Below, piece after piece: positions 3,237 to 18,573 of a stretch of 64,000 nucleotides of DNA. The translations under genes and the position numbers were made by a program. Numbering within the stretch: the stretch's first letter is position 1; each line of letters begins with the position of its first letter. This stretch comes from Minisyncoccota bacterium. GTDB taxonomy: Bacteria; Patescibacteriota; Minisyncoccia; Phycocordibacterales; UBA2100. The stretch covers positions 66,845 through 130,844 of the forward strand of contig JAYWCB010000010.1 in NCBI GenBank assembly GCA_043780835.1, written 5' to 3'. Below the pieces are notes generated by a model. It was given only the letters and a program-made list of their open reading frames with translations, made no database searches and had not been told where the DNA came from.

Positions 3237-3307
3237 AGTGTACTCGTTTTCCTGAAATCGGATACTTGAAAGCCCGTCGCCGACGGGTCATACGCTACAA
3301 TAACCCC

Positions 3308-4132
3308 ATGGCTTCACTCATCAATGCACTGCTTTTGGTAGCTCTTTCCCCATTTTTGTTTGCGCTCGTGATTTTGTGTATCGATATGGTGTGGGTATTT
3401 TTGATCGCGCTATATCTTCGCAATAACGGTATCGTCGATATTGCATACGGCCTCGCGTTTATTCTCGTTGCAGCGACAACGCTCTATAACTTTGGAGCGT
3501 ACCCCCTCGGTGGGATCGTGACGACACTTGTATCGGTGTGGGGCTTGCGCTTGGCCATACGAATTCACGAGCGCACTCGCACCCATCCCGAGGATTTTCG
3601 TTATGCGGCGTGGCGTGAACGATGGGTATGGTTTAAAACCCGCAGCTTCTTTCAAATATATATGTTGCAGGGATTTATCGTATGGCTTATTTCGCTCCCG
3701 GTAATCTTTGCGAACACCAATCCGGCACCTGTATTTTCGATTCTCTCCGCAGTCGGCCTCTTCGTATGGCTTACCGGTTTTTTCTTTGAGGCAGTCGGTG
3801 ATTACCAACTCGACACGTTCATCAAAGACCCGCTCAACAAAGGTGCGTTGATGACGAAAGGTCTGTGGAGCATTACGCGACACCCGAATTACTTCGGTGA
3901 AGCAACGATGTGGTGGGGTATGTGGCTCATCGCACTGCCGTCCATACTGCCCTTTGGAACCGGCATAGTTGTGGCAACGTGCGTTTTCAGCCCAGTACTG
4001 ATCACCGTCTTGCTTCTAAAAATATCCGGTGTTCCGATGCTCGAGGCAGCAATGCAGAAAAAAGACGGTTGGGATGCGTATGCATCGCGTGTTGCTATGT
4101 TTGTCCCCTGGTTTCCGAAACGCACGGATTAA
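3308..4132 (+). CDS. DUF1295 / steroid 5-alpha-reductase-like membrane protein
   Basis: Multi-TM protein with the ITRHPNYFGE motif typical of the DUF1295 / ICMT-like family. Start taken at MASLINALL rather than the upstream Arg-rich extension. Confidence 0.45.
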   Translation: MASLINALLLVALSPFLFALVILCIDMVWVFLIALYLRNNGIVDIAYGLAFILVAATTLYNFGAYPLGGIVTTLVSVWGLRLAIRIHERTRTHPEDFRYAAWRERWVWFKTRSFFQIYMLQGFIVWLISLPVIFANTNPAPVFSILSAVGLFVWLTGFFFEAVGDYQLDTFIKDPLNKGALMTKGLWSITRHPNYFGEATMWWGMWLIALPSILPFGTGIVVATCVFSPVLITVLLLKISGVPMLEAAMQKKDGWDAYASRVAMFVPWFPKRTD

Positions 4133-4214: not shown

Positions 4215-4919
4215 ATGTACCATAGCGATATGACGATTGGACTCATCCTGCTGTGGATCGGCGTGATATCGCTGATTGGCGTTGGTGCGGCATATTATGC
4301 GCGCATTACTGATCGCGCTGATGCGATCGTTGCGCTCTACGTAACGCTTGTCATTACCTCTAATTTGGTAGCCTCGAAGATCGTCGGATTCGATCTGGGT
4401 TTTACAACACTCTTTGCGCCCGGTGCAACGCTTCTTTTTTCCGTAACATTTCTCCTCACCGACATCGTCAGCGAAAAGTTTGGGCGCGCCGCAACACAAC
4501 GCATGATCTTTATCGCTTTTCTTTCGCAAATCGCATTTCTCATCTTTTCTTACATTGCGGTCTCAGCGACCCCGGCGCCCTTCTTTACCGGACAGGCGGC
4601 ATTCGAAGCGGTATTTGCGTCGGTACCACGCATTGCGGCCGCCGGCCTTGTTACTTTTTTGATCAGTGAATCGCTGGACGCGTATCTGTACCAATGGTTC
4701 CGGCTGAAAACGCACGGACGACATGTATGGATGCGTAATGCATTCAGTTCAATTCCGGCGATGTTGCTCGATAGCGTGCTGTTTGTAACGCTGGCCTTCT
4801 ACGGAGTGACGCCGATTCTGCCGCTGATCATCGGACTCACTGCTATTAAATGGATCGTCGCCGTTATCGATATTCCGTTTATGTACATCGCCCGCGCCGT
4901 CATTGGCGCAGGAAAATAG
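4215..4919 (+). CDS. YhhQ/DUF165-family membrane protein (queuosine-precursor / vitamin uptake transporter family)
   Basis: 6-TM protein. The VTLVITSNLVASKIVGF motif resembles the YhhQ family. Confidence 0.5.
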   Translation: MYHSDMTIGLILLWIGVISLIGVGAAYYARITDRADAIVALYVTLVITSNLVASKIVGFDLGFTTLFAPGATLLFSVTFLLTDIVSEKFGRAATQRMIFIAFLSQIAFLIFSYIAVSATPAPFFTGQAAFEAVFASVPRIAAAGLVTFLISESLDAYLYQWFRLKTHGRHVWMRNAFSSIPAMLLDSVLFVTLAFYGVTPILPLIIGLTAIKWIVAVIDIPFMYIARAVIGAGK

Positions 4920-5081
4920 CTGGATTCCGAAACAAAGCGAGCGGATACGGGCATCTCGGTGATTACAAAAATGCCCAGGAGCTATTGCTTTCTCATGATG
5001 GAATTGTCCCATGTGCACTTATTTCAATCTACAGAGCGGCTCTCTCCGCAACAAGTCGCCGGTATTGTATATTGAAAAGAT

Positions 5082-6203
5082 ATGGAAGGCTGGAAACCAA
5101 AGCGCTTAGAGATTCTCTCTCATGAGGAGTCTGCCTCTGAAGGGCTTGTGAGCGCCGAAGAGCGAACACGTCTGGCGTATCTCGAAGAATGGGAGCAACA
5201 ATGCACCCCTGAGCAGATGAAGCGAATCATCGATAAAGTTCAAGACTTAGACAGAAGAGGAATTGCGTACTCGCGTGTCATGAGACTTTTGCAGCAGGAT
5301 TTTAATTTCGAATCGGCTACGATGAAAGAACTTGAAAAATGCTACCCCGAACAATTCGAAAAAGGCATCGAGAAAGAGGATCGGCGAAAGCTGTACAACG
5401 CTTCTTTGTTCCCGTTACAGATGAATTCTAGTTAGTCGGAATTAGAGAAAATACTTGCGCAAGGATTAATCGGCGGCGTTAAAGACATTCCTATTGAATC
5501 TGCTCGCGACTATAGACGAGTAATCAAGAGCCGATCATCTTATGGCCGACTGGTTCATTTTAATATTACAGGTAGGGAGCAGTGGGAACATGAGCGGAGA
5601 CCCTATAACAAGGATATCGCAGCGGAGACACGTCCGGTCTTAGAGATCGGCTCCAAAAGTTATACAGAGTACGCGGACACCGTTACCGTAATTTTTGATA
5701 TAGATGACCTTAGTGAAGTTTCTCCAGGCGAGAAGACGTTCGACGTAGGTCACACTAGGTCAATTTCAAAAACATTTACATTGGGTGATAAAAGTTCGAT
5801 CCCTTATTCTGTACAAGATTTGGTCCCTCCGGCTGGAACCCCACTGTCAGATGTTGACGAAAACGGTTTTGGAACATTTGATACCGGTAGTGGCCACCGA
5901 GAAACTATTCGAGCCACTGCCGAGTATGGATTTATTACTCCATCAAGAATTCCCCCAAAACGATTCGCCGGAATTGTTTATACACCGATAAAAGAGGGTT
6001 CTGCATATGGACCGGCATCGATATTTTATACGGACGAAGAATTACAACGGCCCGTACGAAATATCGCTGCAACCATGGTCAAGGTGAATGAGAAAACTCC
6101 AGAGAGGATTGTGCCTGTGTACGATTCTAGAGGAAATCTGTTATGGCCTAAACAGATGCATTATGAAAAGGTAAAAGAGCTGGTTCAGAAGAAAACTTCA
6201 TGA
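5082..6203 (+). pseudogene. Hypothetical gene interrupted by an in-frame TAG (5433-5435); the two halves are contiguous in one frame
   Basis: ORF 5082..5435 and the downstream open frame (to 6203) share a frame. The 345 nt after the TAG has no ATG/GTG/TTG before the TTG at 5781. AT-rich relative to its surroundings. Confidence 0.35.
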
Positions 6204-6319
6204 GTCAAAACTTTCGAATAACTATTGCGGGCCGTCTTGAGCTAGAACCGTGGTCGGTCAATCCCTGTTTGACGGAATAGCTACATTCTACACGACCCAA
6301 TCGACGCGACTTGGGCGCG

Positions 6320-6862
6320 CTATTTTACATAGTCTATTTCTAAATCCATTTGAGTTTTAAGTTGTAAAACCCTTTCCATTACATGGTCTCCGATTTCTCC
6401 CCAATCAAAATATTTCTTGTGGTCCTTCGGGTCTATGAGTTCTATCCCAGTAATCTCTTCATCGTCAGGATCTCGTACAAAGGGACCGTATGGCTCAACG
6501 ATACAAACTGACCGTGTTTGAGTAATGATTTTCCCTGGTTCAGATATTTCTTGAAAACCAACAAAACGCTGCTTCAATACCTTCATATTTGTTTCTTCTT
6601 TTACTTCTCGAGTTACTGCATCACGAGCGCTTTCTCCAATTTCTACACTTCCTCCCGGCGGAGTCCAGTATCCTTTTAAGTGGGAATATACGACTACAAG
6701 CTTGTCTTTGTAAAAACAATACGCATGAACTCCCGAAATCTTTTTATCTTTGAAATCGAGTTCGCTTTCAATGTCTTTATATGTGACGTTTAAGGCTTGT
6801 CCGGAGCGATTGGTGAGAGTCGATTGCATTTCCATACAGTAATTGTATCGCCGTTTCAGCAT
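6320..6862 (-). CDS. NUDIX hydrolase
   Basis: Nudix box GGSVEIGESARDAVTREVKEETN (GX5EX7REUXEEXGU). AT-rich compared with flanking core genes. Confidence 0.75.
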   Translation of the reverse strand: MLKRRYNYCMEMQSTLTNRSGQALNVTYKDIESELDFKDKKISGVHAYCFYKDKLVVVYSHLKGYWTPPGGSVEIGESARDAVTREVKEETNMKVLKQRFVGFQEISEPGKIITQTRSVCIVEPYGPFVRDPDDEEITGIELIDPKDHKKYFDWGEIGDHVMERVLQLKTQMDLEIDYVK

Positions 6863-6902
6863 CTAAGAAACGACGCATCTCGAGCGCGATGACCGCGCTC
6901 TA

Positions 6903-6925
6903 ATTGGCGGAGGGGGAGAGATTCG
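6903..6925. repeat. Direct repeat of the tRNA-Ser 3' end (att-like remnant)
   Basis: attg(g)cggagggggagagattcg at 6903-6925 versus attgcggagggggagagattcg at 7084-7105 (T-loop through 3' end of the tRNA-Ser gene). 19/19 identical core. Confidence 0.5.
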
Positions 6926-7087
6926 GTCAAGCGCTCGAAATATTGCCGACGCAATATTCCTCCGCCTGACCACGCTCGCGCCGCTCCATCTGCTGATGGA
7001 GCCTCCGGCGCTCGCCTTCGAATCCCTCCCTCAATCTCGCAATGATGAATCAAAAAAACCCCTTACCGGAGTCTTTTCGAATCATTG

Positions 7088-7172
7088 CGGAGGGGGAGAG
7101 ATTCGAACTCTCGAGACCTTGCGGCCTGGCGCATTTCAAGTGCGCTGGAATCAACCACTATCCGACCCCTCC
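7088..7172 (-). tRNA. tRNA-Ser (anticodon UGA), class II with long variable arm
   Basis: Reverse complement GGAGGGGUCGGAUAGUGGUUGAUUCCAGCGCACUUGAAAUGCGCCAGGCCGCAAGGUCUCGAGAGUUCGAAUCUCUCCCCCUCCG. 7-bp acceptor, 3-bp D stem, anticodon loop CUUGAAA, T-loop UUCGAAU. Confidence 0.8.
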
Positions 7173-7173
7173 G

Positions 7174-7659
7174 TTACGTGACCACAGTACCATTAAGCCA
7201 ACTTTTTCCTAAATGATGCTCTTCGTAGTGACAATTCGGACATATGAGCTCCAGATTTTCAAGTTCATTGTTGTTTCGATTACGATCTCGATGATGTACG
7301 TGTAATATTTCAACCCTGCTGTACCTGCATCGTTCGCATTGTGTGCCACGCACTGCAATCAATCTTAACTTGACCGCTCTCTGATTTTTAACCTTATCTT
7401 TGGGACTTCCTATTTTATATTTGATGCCTGCACGATTTTTATTGGCGCATGCCCTACTACACGTCTTCTTATGTAAACTGGCTAATATAGGAGTCGCACA
7501 AATAATGCACGGATTTTCTTTTCTCGATGCGAGTCCGTAACAAGCTGAACTACAATACGCCATCCCCTTACTTCGAAGCAATTCAATCGGTCTTCGGTAT
7601 ACCGATTTGCCGCATATCCCACATTTCGAATTTGGATGTCTCATATGATACTCAGCCAT
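7174..7659 (-). CDS. HNH endonuclease (free-standing, zinc-finger rich)
   Basis: HVHHRDRNRNNNELENLELICPNCH HNH motif plus several CxxC pairs. AT-rich. Abuts the tRNA-Ser 5' end. Confidence 0.7.
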   Translation of the reverse strand: MAEYHMRHPNSKCGICGKSVYRRPIELLRSKGMAYCSSACYGLASRKENPCIICATPILASLHKKTCSRACANKNRAGIKYKIGSPKDKVKNQRAVKLRLIAVRGTQCERCRYSRVEILHVHHRDRNRNNNELENLELICPNCHYEEHHLGKSWLNGTVVT

Positions 7660-7734
7660 ACAACCATTCTACCATCCACTTTCCGACACCCATTCTGATC
7701 GTGCGAGTGACGCGGTGTTACAATAATTCTATCT

Positions 7735-8205
7735 ATGCCCGATCATACGGTTGTCTTGCGATGGAATGCGTACGAACACGAACACGTTGAGCGCGGGTCG
7801 GAGTGGTTTTGGGCGCTCGGGATTGCTGCCGTCTGCGCCGCACTCACCGCAATTCTCTTGAGCGACATTATGTTTGCAATTCTTATTTTGGTCGCCGCAT
7901 TCACTATCGCGCTGCTTGCGCGCCACGCACCCGATGTTTCCACGTTTGAAATTTCCACAAAGGGCGTGCGCGTGGATCGTGTACTTCACCGCTACGACGA
8001 GATTATTTCGTTTTGGGTAGAAGACGAGCACGACGGGCATCCGCTCCTCTTAATCGATACGATTAAATTTATGTCACCGAATCTTATTATTCCCATCCAC
8101 GATATTGAACCGGGACTCGTGCGGGCATATATGCAGGAGCACACAACGGAAGTGCACATGAAAGAACCCTTCGCACACAAGGTGCTTGAATTCTTTGGTA
8201 TTTAA
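7735..8205 (+). CDS. Hypothetical membrane protein (2 TM)
   Basis: ORF with two hydrophobic helices; no recognizable family. Confidence 0.35.
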   Translation: MPDHTVVLRWNAYEHEHVERGSEWFWALGIAAVCAALTAILLSDIMFAILILVAAFTIALLARHAPDVSTFEISTKGVRVDRVLHRYDEIISFWVEDEHDGHPLLLIDTIKFMSPNLIIPIHDIEPGLVRAYMQEHTTEVHMKEPFAHKVLEFFGI

Positions 8206-9751: not shown

Positions 9752-12700
9752 TTATTGCGCAAAATTAAAGCTTTGTGTAGACGGATTATCCAAAAATTTC
9801 GGCTCCGGCAAACTCGAGTCTTTGAATTCCCCGAGCGAAGCATTCGGCGGCGTGTAGAGGGACGCCATAATTTGATACGTACGCCCGGATATAAGATCCG
9901 ATCCGCACACCACGGATGACGACGAATTGCACGCATCGTCTGCATGCGGAATGTTCCAGGTAAACGTCCCGGCCTTGGCACGATGTCCCGAAATCAATGC
10001 AACGGTTCGTTTGTCGTCGACGCTATACAACCACAGCGCAACTGCCGAGACGTCGGGCGCACTCGGGAAATTCCAACGAATCGTCGCACTCGAGCCGAGC
10101 GCCACATTGGTGCGATTTTCTATTGAACTTGAAACAGTGCCGGGAGTCACCGCATCGACGGTGATCTTTTCTTGCCGAGTGGAGCCCGTAACGGTTTTGC
10201 AATTGAGGTAAAAATCCGTCTTTTGAGTGATGGCAGAACTCGTGGCGATGCCCGATGGCTTCTTGTTTGATGCGTTACGATCCGTGAAATCCGCCTGATC
10301 AGGACTTGAGATGACACACGAATCCATTCCCGTCGTAACCCATCCGATCAGAGTCGTGTCCCCTACGCGCGGTTTTTCGGGAATGGCGCGGAGCACAACG
10401 GAAATTTTGGCGATCTGCACGGTGCACTGCGCTGCCGCAGAAAGATTACCGTTTTCACACTTGAGCGCAAAGTTTGCAGCGTTTGCGTTTTCAGGCGGCG
10501 CGATGATCGTTGTCGTTGCCCCAGATGTGAATCCGCCTGTCACAAAGCCGTACCCCGTGCTTGAGGATGCATTTCCGCAGGTGTAAGAAATTATCGCCTG
10601 CGCGCCGCTTTCAACAACTCCAGGCTCACACGCAAGTTGGGCCGTTGGGGTGACGCTCGTGCTCACCACGCACTGCCACACAGGACAGACGGTGCCGCTG
10701 ACTAGCGTGCTCGTCATTTGTCGCCATGTGCCGTTGGTGCATGTGCTTGCATCGGGTTGTACGGAAAGCTGCGGGCACTGACCTGTCGTTCCCGTTCCGG
10801 AATTCGTGCACGGCTGTGGTGCTTGCGGCGCAATAGCGTACGACGTGACCCCGTAGAGCGCGCTTTGTTGCTGTTGATAATTATATTGCTGCAACTGGTA
10901 GTTGTACTGCTGCAGTTGTGAATTATATTGCTGTTGGTACTGAGAATATGCTTGTGAATCTGTTGGACATTTTTGTGCCGTTTGTGACGAGGCGCTACCG
11001 GACGAAGTTCCCCCACTCAAGCCTTTCATGAGTCCTCCCAAAAATGACGTGAGTCCGCTCAAGCCACTCCCTGAACCTCTGGAGCTTCCACCTCCACCGC
11101 CATTACCCCCGCCATTTGTGTTCGGTGCTTGATACCCCGGACAACCAGCTCTGGTAGCAGGACAATCTGAAGGATTTTCTTTTCTCGCTGGAGCATCTGC
11201 AGGCCGTTCGCGTGGTAATGGCGCAGCTTTCTCGCAGTATGCGGTTCCAGCTTCATACACACTGCATTTGTATCCTTTTTCTTCAAGTGCTTTTCGATCT
11301 TCGTCGGTTTTCGGTGACGCCGTGCACCGCGCGGGATCGGTAGTGCAATCAGGTTGATTCCGCAACGAGCTATCCTCGCTCTTATACATGTCGTCGTTCC
11401 CGCTATTATTTTTAACGGAGCCGCCGGTAGTTTTACCGGTTTCATCGACGCTCGCAGCTTTCGACAGATCTTTTCCCTCCGTCACCGGCTCAAGACCAGC
11501 CGCCCTAATCTGCTCATTAGTTGGCGGCTCGATACCCAACTTTTCTACAATCCAGTCCCCTCCAGCTTTAACCTTCGCATCAACCCAATTGTATGAATTT
11601 GCAAGGTTACTTTTTACGTTCTCCCATGAGTTCACTGGCTTATAGCCGGTGTCGGCTTCGCGCTGCTGATCGTACGGAACTTTATCGACCGGGAAATCTA
11701 CTTCGCCGGGACCTTGTGTACCTTTTCCAAAAGTACTTGTTTGAGTAAGCGCATTCGGATCGTTTGTCGGATTTTTAGGATCATCTCCCTTCGGCTCTTT
11801 TATCGTTCCGTTTAAATAATCGTTTGACGCGGCACCGGGGCTCATGGTTTTAATTTCTCCACCATTCAAAATAGCTCCCACATTCGACTTTGTATCGGTA
11901 GGATTGCCATGAAAGTTCATATCTGACTCCCCCTTGCCCATTCGCTCAAGCGCCTGCGATACCGTTTCGCCCTCTTTGAGATTCGCGATATTACCGGTGT
12001 TGTTATCAACAACTCGAGTTTCTCCGTTGAGAACCTCAACTTTTACTCCGTCTTTCAGCTCGTATGATTTGGCTCCGCTCTTCGCATCAGTCGTGCCGCC
12101 TGCTGGCGTTGTGCCATTCGTTGCCGACAGAATCGCATTCGGTTTCGTCGCGTTTGGCACTGGATTATCTCCTCCTCCACCCGGTGAGGGAAGCTGCGGC
12201 ATACTAGCAGACGTCGGTTGCGGAACGCCACCTGACTGAGGCGTTACCGACTGCCCTGCCCCGAATTGCTTCGGTGTCTCTGAACAATTACTTCCCGCCG
12301 TGGTGTTGTACGGATTTTTTATCGATGAGCAGACCGTGACTTTGCACTGGCCTTTCTGGACAGATTTATCCGGCTTCGTTTTACCGACCGTACTTTCGGT
12401 AGTAATGGTGACCGTGCCGCTTCTTCCCACACAATCATAGTCTTCCGTTTTCTGACTTGGTTGTTTTCCTGCTTTTACGATCGCACCAAAACACGCATCC
12501 ACGGTTCCGCTCTGCCCTTTATCAGTACTGGTGACTTCCGGACCTTCAGCTTTACCGAGCGCTGCCTGAATTGCTTTCGTGCAGTTTTCCGGTGCGGGAC
12601 TATCGTACTTAGTTGTACTTGGCGGCGCGTTATCGTCCGCGGTAATAGCAGCAGCCTGTGCCACCATCGCTCGCTGTTGAACAGACTCACCCGCGATTGA

Positions 12701-18272: not shown

Positions 18273-18465
18273 TTTTTTGGTTACTATCCCGCGTGCTCGC
18301 GGGCCCCACGCAAAACCTTTCGAATCCTGACGTTCGCTTCGCGAACTCTGGTCACAGCATTATTGTGGTCAGGGATATTTTTCTCGTCGCCACTCGAAAA
18401 ATTCCACGACCCTGGCTCGCGGTCCCGCATGCTTGCGGGACATCGCTCCGCCTCGCACATGTAAA

Positions 18466-18495
18466 GAAAAACAGCACGCAGGTGCTGTTTTTTTA
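18466..18495. terminator. Bidirectional rho-independent terminator
   Basis: aaaaacagcacgcaggtgctgttttttt: GC stem flanked by an A-run and a T-run. Terminates the plus transcript and the minus-strand tRNA-Lys. Confidence 0.6.
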
Positions 18496-18500
18496 TCATG

Positions 18501-18573
18501 TGCGCCCACCAGGATTCGAACCTGGGACCGTCTCCTTAAAAGGGAGCTGCTCTACCAACTGAGCTATGAGCGC
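18501..18573 (-). tRNA. tRNA-Lys (anticodon UUU)
   Basis: Reverse complement GCGCUCAUAGCUCAGUUGGUAGAGCAGCUCCCUUUUAAGGAGACGGUCCCAGGUUCGAAUCCUGGUGGGCGCA. Canonical arms; anticodon loop CUUUUAA. Confidence 0.85.

Follow-up and report, generated by a model that had tools for sequence, protein, structure and literature searches.

What does a short direct repeat of a tRNA 3′ end mean when it is found beside AT-rich genes in a bacterial genome? The question is raised by a variable segment (positions 4920-7700) in a 64-kb stretch of DNA from a Paceibacteria-type genome of the candidate phyla radiation (CPR); the whole stretch is called the window below. The segment contains a tRNA-Ser(TGA) gene, a second copy of the 3′ end of this gene and three low-GC genes, an arrangement in which a first-pass annotation had seen the footprint of a tRNA-targeting integrase. 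Our analyses lead to another answer: judged from the modelled fold, the second copy is an arm of a Y-shaped element of ~140 nt (~190 nt as a whole trailer unit), which recurs behind several tRNA genes. We propose, with a probability of roughly 0.55, that it is a tRNA-trailer element similar to the RtT RNA of Escherichia coli, processed from the tRNA transcript; the low-GC genes are strain-specific additions at a variable spot.

The repeat pair behind tRNA-Ser

The tRNA-Ser(TGA) gene lies on the minus strand and was called at 7087-7172 by ARAGORN and at 7088-7172 by the Rfam tRNA model (52.1 bits with the filters relaxed, the default Rfam filters at the gathering threshold having overlooked it), which upholds the intact gene annotated earlier at 7088-7172. 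It does not encode the CCA end, its discriminator G at 7088 being followed by CAA. The direct repeat, CGAATCTCTCCCCCTCCGC in the tRNA sense, is exact over 19 nt (6907-6925 and 7087-7105) and runs from C56 of the T-loop to one base beyond the discriminator; its two copies start 180 nt apart and leave 161 bp in between. The direct copy announced at 160 bp is thus there, but the 22-23 nt attributed to it are reached only if one 1-nt indel is permitted. When the 19-mer was searched in the 64 kb with up to three mismatches, both known copies were the only matches (shuffled sequences lead one to expect 0.01), and no third partial copy of the tRNA-Ser 3′ end was found, including leftwards, where further copies had been suggested as the limit of a larger island. 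Chance does not account for the repeat pair, the source of which is the tRNA 3′ end.

The low GC content claimed for the segment holds for the genes but not for the tRNA and its repeat. Relative to the window overall (0.509), GC content falls to 0.440 in 4920-6903 (z = -3.6), to 0.394 in the NUDIX gene (z = -4.2) and to 0.414 in the HNH gene (z = -3.3), and rises to 0.569 in the tRNA and repeat segment at 6904-7172 (z = +1.7). The dip is confined to the genes, and the 161 bp enclosed by the repeats are GC-rich (~0.57).

These values bear on the explanation by an integrase, in which the direct repeat would be the attL/attR scar of an integrase-borne island at tRNA-Ser, the integrase being lost and the AT-rich genes being what remains of the cargo. 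The region from the T-loop to the 3′ end of a tRNA gene is the classic crossover region of integrases; the repeat spans precisely this region, and the adjacent genes are low in GC and strain-specific. However, the repeats enclose 161 GC-rich bp and leave all the AT-rich genes outside, and no further repeat exists to bound them. As had been noticed before, no integrase remains: no such domain was found in the open reading frames (ORFs) of 4920-7700, and a Pfam scan of the candidate ORFs in 4215-8205 gave only Vut_1, NUDIX and HNH. The search against phages or integrative elements that the first-pass annotation had called for gives no support either, blastn of 4920-7734 against a collection of 50,697 phage records returning no match.

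Anatomy of the element

In the tRNA sense, the parts follow one another in the order tRNA, hairpin 1, an inverted copy (A′), a core made of the hairpins P2 and P3, the direct copy (A) and hairpin 2. The folds of P2 and P3 are those of minimum free energy (MFE).

7087-7105, minus strand: repeat copy 1 (A), the tRNA's own T-loop-to-3′ end, CGAATCTCTCCCCCTCCGC, exact 19-nt repeat
7052-7079, minus strand: hairpin 1, terminator-like, ACUCC GGUAA GGGGU and seven U, directly after the tRNA
7017-7045, minus strand: A′, imperfect inverted copy of the tRNA 3′ end and trailer, 5′ arm of the closing helix
6978-7011, minus strand: P2 hairpin of the conserved core, GCGCC..CUCCAUC AGCA GAUGGAG..GGCGC, MFE fold
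6925-6971, minus strand: P3 hairpin, also in the conserved core; internal loop conserved, tip covarying, MFE fold
6905-6925, minus strand: repeat copy 2 (A), the tRNA 3′ end in direct orientation, closing helix (3′ arm), with G then CCA
6882-6900, minus strand: hairpin 2, GAGCGCG GUCAU CGCGCUC, at the position of a second terminator-like hairpin in related loci

The covariance model described in the next section matches the element at 6907-7045 with 145.2 bits, and the core has conserved junction and internal-loop sequences besides P2 and P3. Hairpin 1 was not called by a simple terminator scan; among related copies (alignments A1 and A2) its stems differ and covary, with the same flanks. A′ is not only an arm of the closing helix: when its reverse complement is aligned to copy 1, it appears also as the distal arm of a long quasi-palindrome that has hairpin 1 at its centre and the tRNA 3′ end as its other arm.

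Other origins were considered for these parts. A′ as a copy of the 5′ acceptor strand of the tRNA is ruled out by a G.U pair in the acceptor stem of a tRNA-His that is followed by the element, where A′ is the complement of the 3′ strand. A protein-coding spacer was dropped, the short ORFs at 6856-7053 and 6996-7181 running antisense into the tRNA.

A family with a common core and tRNA-specific arms

Copies were sought by an nhmmer profile search and then by a covariance model built from nine of them, the E-values of which are rough. The sample amounts to ~15 copies from ~10 genomes, and the genome and metagenome counts are lower bounds. The ~180 nt downstream of tRNA-Ser, repeat copy included, align with the same region of three related loci (L001, L002 and L003), and a metagenome scan with the invariant core gave at least one further locus, the metagenomic contig L014, where the element lies behind tRNA-Ser(CGA) among different gene neighbours and aligns with the window copy. 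Copies, including weaker variants called type B (the others being type A), were found as follows.

Behind tRNA-Ser(TGA): window, L002, L003 and L019, co-oriented and directly downstream
Behind tRNA-Val: L003, L015 and L019, with a partial copy at the start of the L018 contig
Behind tRNA-His: L019
Behind tRNA-Lys: L023
Type B: behind tRNA-Lys (window, L018) and tRNA-Arg(TCT) (L018)
18353-18480, minus strand: second copy in the window, of type B, behind tRNA-Lys(TTT) (18500-18573, minus strand), 28.9 bits, E = 3e-6

Every type-A copy whose neighbour tRNA is on the contig, and every type-B copy, lies directly downstream of this tRNA in the same orientation. The test does not apply to the copy present in L001 nor to the L018 fragment, whose contigs end before the tRNA. 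The type-B copy of the window is followed by a truncated type-A remnant (~18290-18326), the A′ of which matches the T-loop of tRNA-Lys. The element was not found in the distant relatives L004-L006, L024 and L026, nor in L022. Searches of Rfam at gathering and relaxed thresholds returned only tRNAs and sub-threshold overlaps with tRNAs (sX4 and plastid UTR models), with no match to ribozymes, signal recognition particle RNA, 6S RNA, tmRNA or Y-RNA, and no described CPR element downstream of tRNA genes was found in the literature. The sub-threshold matches of sX4, a small RNA of Xanthomonas, reach 25-36 bits over tRNA-Ser in the window (7029-7188), in L014 (3304-3480) and in L015 (9795-9946); as they occur also at one locus without the element, the likeness seems to be to tRNA-Ser itself.

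The core is common to the copies and the arms vary with the local tRNA (Ser, Val, His or Lys). The distal copy of L014 is identical to its own tRNA-Ser(CGA) 3′ end at 20 of 20 positions and differs from the tRNA end of the window; the copy at the unit end is likewise perfect in the window (19/19) and behind tRNA-Val in L003 (30/30), and it is decayed elsewhere. These three loci have exact direct copies of at least 18 nt at +157 to +162, with an imperfect A′; the converse is observed for tRNA-Val in L015 and tRNA-His in L019, where near-exact inverted copies stand at +43 to +47, so that exactness alternates between the two arms. The 30-nt repeat of L003-Val includes 11 nt of genomic trailer, which indicates a copy made from DNA and not from the mature tRNA. 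In the window (6905-6908) and in L001 (8229-8233), copy 2 reads the discriminator G then CCA, the tRNA gene having G-CAA. This may be due to chance or to a 1-nt indel, as the copies of L014 and L019 are without CCA. The idea drawn from it, that copy 2 is a reverse-transcribed end of the mature tRNA or a primer-binding site, was rejected as a general explanation because of these same two loci and of the genomic trailer included in the L003-Val repeat.

The family also settles much of the case of the integrase. The segment enclosed by the repeats is conserved in L001, L002, L003, L014 and L019 with different cargo or none, and the same arrangement recurs in tight clusters of tRNA genes where no island is present, behind the tRNAs for Val, His and Lys. 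Known attL/attR repeats and integrase-less remnants of the CIME (cis-mobilizable element) type share with the window a direct repeat from T-loop to 3′ end, an intact tRNA on one side with the displaced 3′ end on the other, and variable genes nearby. They differ from it by the 161 bp between the repeats, the lack of integrase, the conserved structured core enclosed together with an extra inverted site, and the combination of this core with different tRNA ends. The model of an att scar is largely refuted and we consider it very unlikely; the integrase footprint proposed in the first-pass annotation does not stand.

A second explanation comes from the way the copies are distributed, namely a miniature, non-autonomous selfish insertion element that would aim at the T-loop-to-3′ end of tRNA genes. 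Such a unit would supply a replacement tRNA 3′ end and terminator (copy 1 and hairpin 1) and displace the original ones (copy 2 and hairpin 2), the succession A, loop, A′, cargo, A being the product of a folded single-strand hairpin that recombines with a duplex by one strand exchange, and it would require a recombinase acting in trans. Exchange of this kind by a folded single-stranded hairpin is known for the CTX phage with XerCD and for integron attC sites. Several observations speak for it. The same core is present at non-orthologous tRNA genes in different genomic contexts. Orthologous sites are filled or empty in close relatives: behind tRNA-Val, L003 has the element and L002 does not; behind tRNA-Ser, L019 has it, and L018 and L022 do not. 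The sequence after copy 1 is kept between the tRNA-Ser(TGA) of the window and the tRNA-Ser(CGA) of L014, whereas that after copy 2 is not. Truncated, tandem and nested or interrupted copies exist. In L019, which holds three copies within 20 kb, the P3 tip is identical in the Ser and Val copies and P2 is common to the Val and His copies. At 9835-9920 of the same locus, the A behind tRNA-Ser is split between CGAATCTCT and CACCCTCCGCA by ~85 nt, a nested insertion.

On the other side, no recombinase, transposase or circular form was seen for such a unit, its size is merely ~190 nt, its duplicated length varies from 19 to 30 nt, and it leaves unexplained how the arms are re-specified for each tRNA. 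Copies are likewise missing from the IMG/VR viral contigs, where one core pattern had 0 matches and the other 7, none of them upheld by the covariance model. Comparison with known systems goes both ways. With the CTX attP site (XerCD) and attC sites the element shares the order site, loop, inverted site, cargo, site, and a one-strand structure with covarying stems; it differs by the lack of recombinase or phage genome, by a cargo of ~110 nt and by a tRNA gene as target in place of dif or attI, the likeness being one of architecture alone. Miniature inverted-repeat transposable elements (MITEs) and REPIN-type repeats are, like the element, small, multi-copy, intergenic, hairpin-forming and variably present among strains. 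Unlike those of a MITE, its terminal inverted repeats are not constant and follow the neighbour tRNA (Ser, Val, His, Lys), and unlike in MITEs and REPINs its duplication is variable and unusually long (19-30 nt), strictly downstream of a tRNA and in one orientation.

Fold, covariation and constraint

For the fold of the window copy, the z-score is -6.0 in the tRNA sense and -5.5 on the opposite strand. From a MAFFT alignment RNAalifold predicts a three-way junction, and 27 of its 44 pairs show compensatory change. In 15 copies aligned to the covariance model, 89.7% of the cells are paired, to be compared with 68.4% after shuffling and 38-46% when the partners are slid, and 34 of the 44 pairs have changed on both sides; none of 500 shuffles reaches the observed value on any measure. 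A model-fitted alignment leans to the structure of its own model, and the result based on MAFFT concurs with it. Changes on both sides concern 11 of the 13 pairs of helices 3 and 4 (P2) and 14 of the 19 pairs of helices 5 and 6 (P3), where one G.U is kept in 12 of 14 copies; helix 1, the closing helix between the inverted and direct copies, is paired at 82.8%, with both sides changed in 8 of its 10 pairs. On the tRNA-sense strand the core helices contain 21 G.U vs 3 A.C, an excess which indicates that what is constrained is this strand in single-stranded form, as RNA or possibly as DNA. Strand-specific covariation of this kind, which resembles that of attC sites, is also a point in favour of the selfish unit.

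Three genomes can be compared at the orthologous Val-Arg spacer, where identity is 70-82% in the core and 9-66% in the adjacent spacers. A core that is conserved at a fixed orthologous site with randomised flanks suggests in-place constraint or recurrent gene conversion, and it counts against a selfish insertion.

The quasi-palindrome suggests a third explanation, in which repeat and palindrome would be a functionless by-product of replication template-switching at the tRNA terminator hairpin, through growth and correction of the quasi-palindrome. In agreement with it, the palindrome is long, with the tRNA 3′ end and A′ at its two ends and hairpin 1 between them; the type-B copies show only a hairpin stem lengthened into the last 5-8 nt of the tRNA; and either arm can be refreshed to exactness independently. 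This process gives, however, no account of a common conserved core of ~110 nt with covarying hairpins at many tRNA genes and genomes. We see little chance that it is the whole explanation, and it may account for the maintenance of the arms.

Comparison with the E. coli rtT repeats

In E. coli, 178-bp repeats, each with 19 bp of the tRNA-Tyr 3′ end, lie in the distal part of the tyrT operon and give rise to RtT RNA. This RNA has been known for decades, and its function and origin remain unclear. According to the statement quoted in bioRxiv 10.1101/2024.07.17.603846, it is processed from the tyrT transcript. We re-analysed the locus on NC_000913.3 (L037, 1286700-1287630), the corresponding Rfam family being RF00391. 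The repeats have a period of 178 nt, and the spacer between the tRNA genes tyrT and tyrV is, at 66%, a copy of this unit. The sequence AATCCTTCCCCCACCACCA, 19 nt copied from the tRNA-Tyr 3′ end, is present in every unit, and the units as well as the tyrT-tyrV spacer carry a 22-nt inverted copy of the tRNA-Tyr T-arm, 86% complementary, 64-67 nt behind the tRNA. The Rfam RtT model (130 nt) gives 133-138 bits for the four E. coli units; in its consensus the closing helix is the pair of inverted and direct tRNA copies, followed by a single-stranded CCACCA tail, and the annotated rttR ends at the CCA of the tRNA-Tyr copy. When the covariance model derived from CPR copies was run on the 2.3-kb E. 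coli locus, its four best matches were the four RtT units, on the right strand and in register, with 7-13 bits. In the reverse direction, RF00391 has no match in the window at 6700-7400 (E ≤ 10) nor in L014, L015 and L019 (E ≤ 0.1).

The architecture is common to both. In each case the unit stands directly behind a co-oriented tRNA, with a period of 178 nt in E. coli vs 180 nt in the window, and terminates in ~19 nt copied from the 3′ end of the upstream tRNA; an imperfect inverted copy of the tRNA 3′ end or T-arm lies ~45-65 nt behind the tRNA; and the inverted and direct copies close a multi-hairpin fold that is followed by a single-stranded tRNA-like tail. The differences are that RtT occurs as tandem units in one tRNA operon, whereas the CPR element stands singly and has been found behind no fewer than five or six tRNA species, with tRNA-specific arms; that the CPR element has a terminator-like hairpin between the tRNA and the element; and that most of its copies are without encoded CCA and that it has no Tpr-like ORF.

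The same parallel can be turned towards mobility. In that case the element and the E. coli rtT repeats alike would be an integrated mobile unit of ~190 nt, with a folded-hairpin attachment site that mimics the 3′ end of a tRNA gene and integrates by a single strand exchange. We hold this to be improbable; if true, it would be a tRNA-gene-specific counterpart of CTX-phage and attC integration, and would explain the order A, loop, A′, core, A.

A processed tRNA trailer as the favoured explanation

We favour an RtT-like processed trailer on the basis of the covariation on the sense strand, the constraint in place and the E. coli precedent. The mechanism would be the following: (i) the element would be transcribed in the tRNA sense as the trailer of the tRNA transcript; (ii) it would adopt the Y-shaped fold, in which the closing helix and the single-stranded tail would imitate the acceptor/T-arm stack of the same tRNA, and this imitation could allow the tRNA end-processing enzymes to release a stable RNA of ~150-190 nt with the tRNA-like 3′ end as its terminus, in the manner reported for E. 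coli RtT RNA; and (iii) the arms would be kept matched to the neighbour tRNA by local copy-correction in the quasi-palindrome and the direct repeat, the core having spread among tRNA genes by recombination.

Several data weigh against this proposal. Hairpin 1 with its U run looks like an efficient intrinsic terminator, which would limit read-through, and no promoter-like site was seen in front of A′. In all nine copies compared, the pairing of A′ with the real tRNA end is stronger than its pairing with copy 2 (in the window, duplex energies of -35.7 kcal/mol with copy 1 and -26.3 kcal/mol with copy 2). The MFE fold of the full transcript pairs copy 1 with A′ and the 5′ strands of the tRNA with copy 2, and resembles a tRNA with a 180-nt insertion in its T-loop. 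From these two predictions, the closing helix may not be the preferred fold. G.U and A.C are moreover balanced in this helix (8 and 9), so that the arms look copied and not selected as RNA. The strand-biased covariation would fit a single-stranded DNA intermediate equally well. The Rfam RtT model misses the CPR copies, and homology with RtT is unproven. Finally, presence/absence polymorphism, truncated and nested copies, and mosaic hairpins within one genome are what is expected of a selfish repeat. Hairpin 1, the stronger pairing of A′ with copy 1 (9/9) and this repeat-like behaviour in populations keep the selfish miniature insertion alive as a rival, which we regard as doubtful but serious, and clearly ahead of the other explanations apart from the processed trailer.

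Gene content of the variable spot

If the repeat does not bound an island, where do the low-GC genes come from? Three of them lie around the tRNA-Ser.

7174-7659, minus strand: free-standing HNH endonuclease gene, accessory; Pfam HNH 23.2 bits (cutoff 21.4), phrog_1271 E = 7.7e-15, GC 0.414
6320-6862, minus strand: NUDIX hydrolase gene, accessory; Pfam NUDIX 44.6 bits (cutoff 21.1), GC 0.394
5082-6203, plus strand: TAG-interrupted gene (ORF373), accessory; 373-codon frame, GC 0.447

Both Pfam families (HNH, PF01844; NUDIX, PF00293) pass their gathering thresholds and the PHROG families concur, which confirms an HNH endonuclease on the 5′ side of the tRNA and a NUDIX hydrolase on the other. The gene described at first as interrupted by a nonsense codon is one: the 373-codon frame has a TAG at 5433-5435 as its sole in-frame stop, and the next 115 codons contain no start codon. 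Its homologues (333-453 aa) cover both halves and have a conserved Leu where the TAG aligns, so that the gene is broken by a nonsense codon or a sequencing error; it is probably a recent pseudogene. The family is rare, with 11 matches among 5.8 billion proteins. On an unrelated contig (L028, 620-7002), homologues of NUDIX and ORF373 (38% and 26% identity, respectively) are found 6 kb apart, adjoining ParB-N6/N4 methyltransferase and helix-turn-helix/ImmA-like genes. From these homologies there are hints that NUDIX and ORF373, the pair on the left, come from one mobile element, and the occurrence of both on this mobile-element-like contig is a further point in favour of an integrated island.

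The stop codon of the HNH gene (7174-7176) sits 1 nt off the 5′ end of the tRNA-Ser. In L015, L018 and L019 the tRNA is preceded by the upstream motif GTGCTACAAnGTGC, the place of which is taken by the HNH gene in the window (7172-7235); since the motif is displaced, tRNA-Ser may now depend on transcription through HNH.

Relatives were retrieved by means of the flanking Vut_1 transporter and a 156-aa membrane protein. Their common backbone is a flavokinase gene, Vut_1 (not always present), a variable stretch and the gene of the 156-aa membrane protein. Homology to the window ends at ~4905 and restarts at ~7700-7713, in agreement with the limits given by the first-pass annotation. The content of the variable stretch is as follows.

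L015-L017: tRNA-Ser alone, minus strand, without Vut_1
L018: RNase_T and tRNA-Ser, plus strand
L022: tRNA-Ser alone, plus strand
L019 and L020: ORF of 215 or 178 aa, tRNA-Ser on the plus strand, element
L002 and L003: tRNA-Ser on the plus strand, element, DnaJ-like gene, gene of 168 aa
L001: another ORF, element on the minus strand

All six independent related genomes with both Vut_1 and the 156-aa gene have different content between them, and L015 and L026, which are without Vut_1, show yet other arrangements. L015, L018 and L022 have the tRNA-Ser without element and without islet, and L019 has the element without the islet genes. HNH, NUDIX and ORF373 have a counterpart in none of the related loci retrieved. 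The comparison of relatives thus bears out the idea of a locus open to insertions: the region beside tRNA-Ser is a hotspot of gene flux and the three low-GC genes are accessory, which is the part of the remnant-or-hotspot proposal that stands; the part that does not is an integrative remnant bounded by the repeat. The islet is a mosaic, with three low-GC accessory genes on either side of a resident module of tRNA and element, and these genes were probably gained piecemeal, HNH upstream of tRNA-Ser and NUDIX with ORF373 downstream of it.

Two further observations concern this spot. A DUF1295 membrane-protein gene (3266-4132) lies between flavokinase and Vut_1 in the window only; it is not in L001, L018, L019 and L022, and no counterpart was found in any related locus retrieved. 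Since its GC content is normal (0.501), it is a further insertion of a different kind from the low-GC genes, at the same hotspot. The direction of tRNA-Ser(TGA) relative to the flanks also varies: the minus strand carries it in the window, L015 and L026, the plus strand in L002, L003, L018, L019 and L022, and these opposite orientations between the same flanks point to an inversion of the small tRNA module at least once.

Significance

For annotation, the lesson of this locus is that a short direct repeat of a tRNA 3′ end beside AT-rich genes is not, alone, evidence of an island made by an integrase. For the biology of these bacteria, the element provides a second family of RtT-like build, in a distant lineage of reduced genomes (CPR/Paceibacteria) and behind five or six tRNA species. 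Its natural variants would be useful for work on function, whether these units serve as substrates for processing, act as mimics or decoys of tRNA, or are selfish insertions. The family suggests that trailer elements which copy a tRNA 3′ end are a general class and not an oddity of E. coli.

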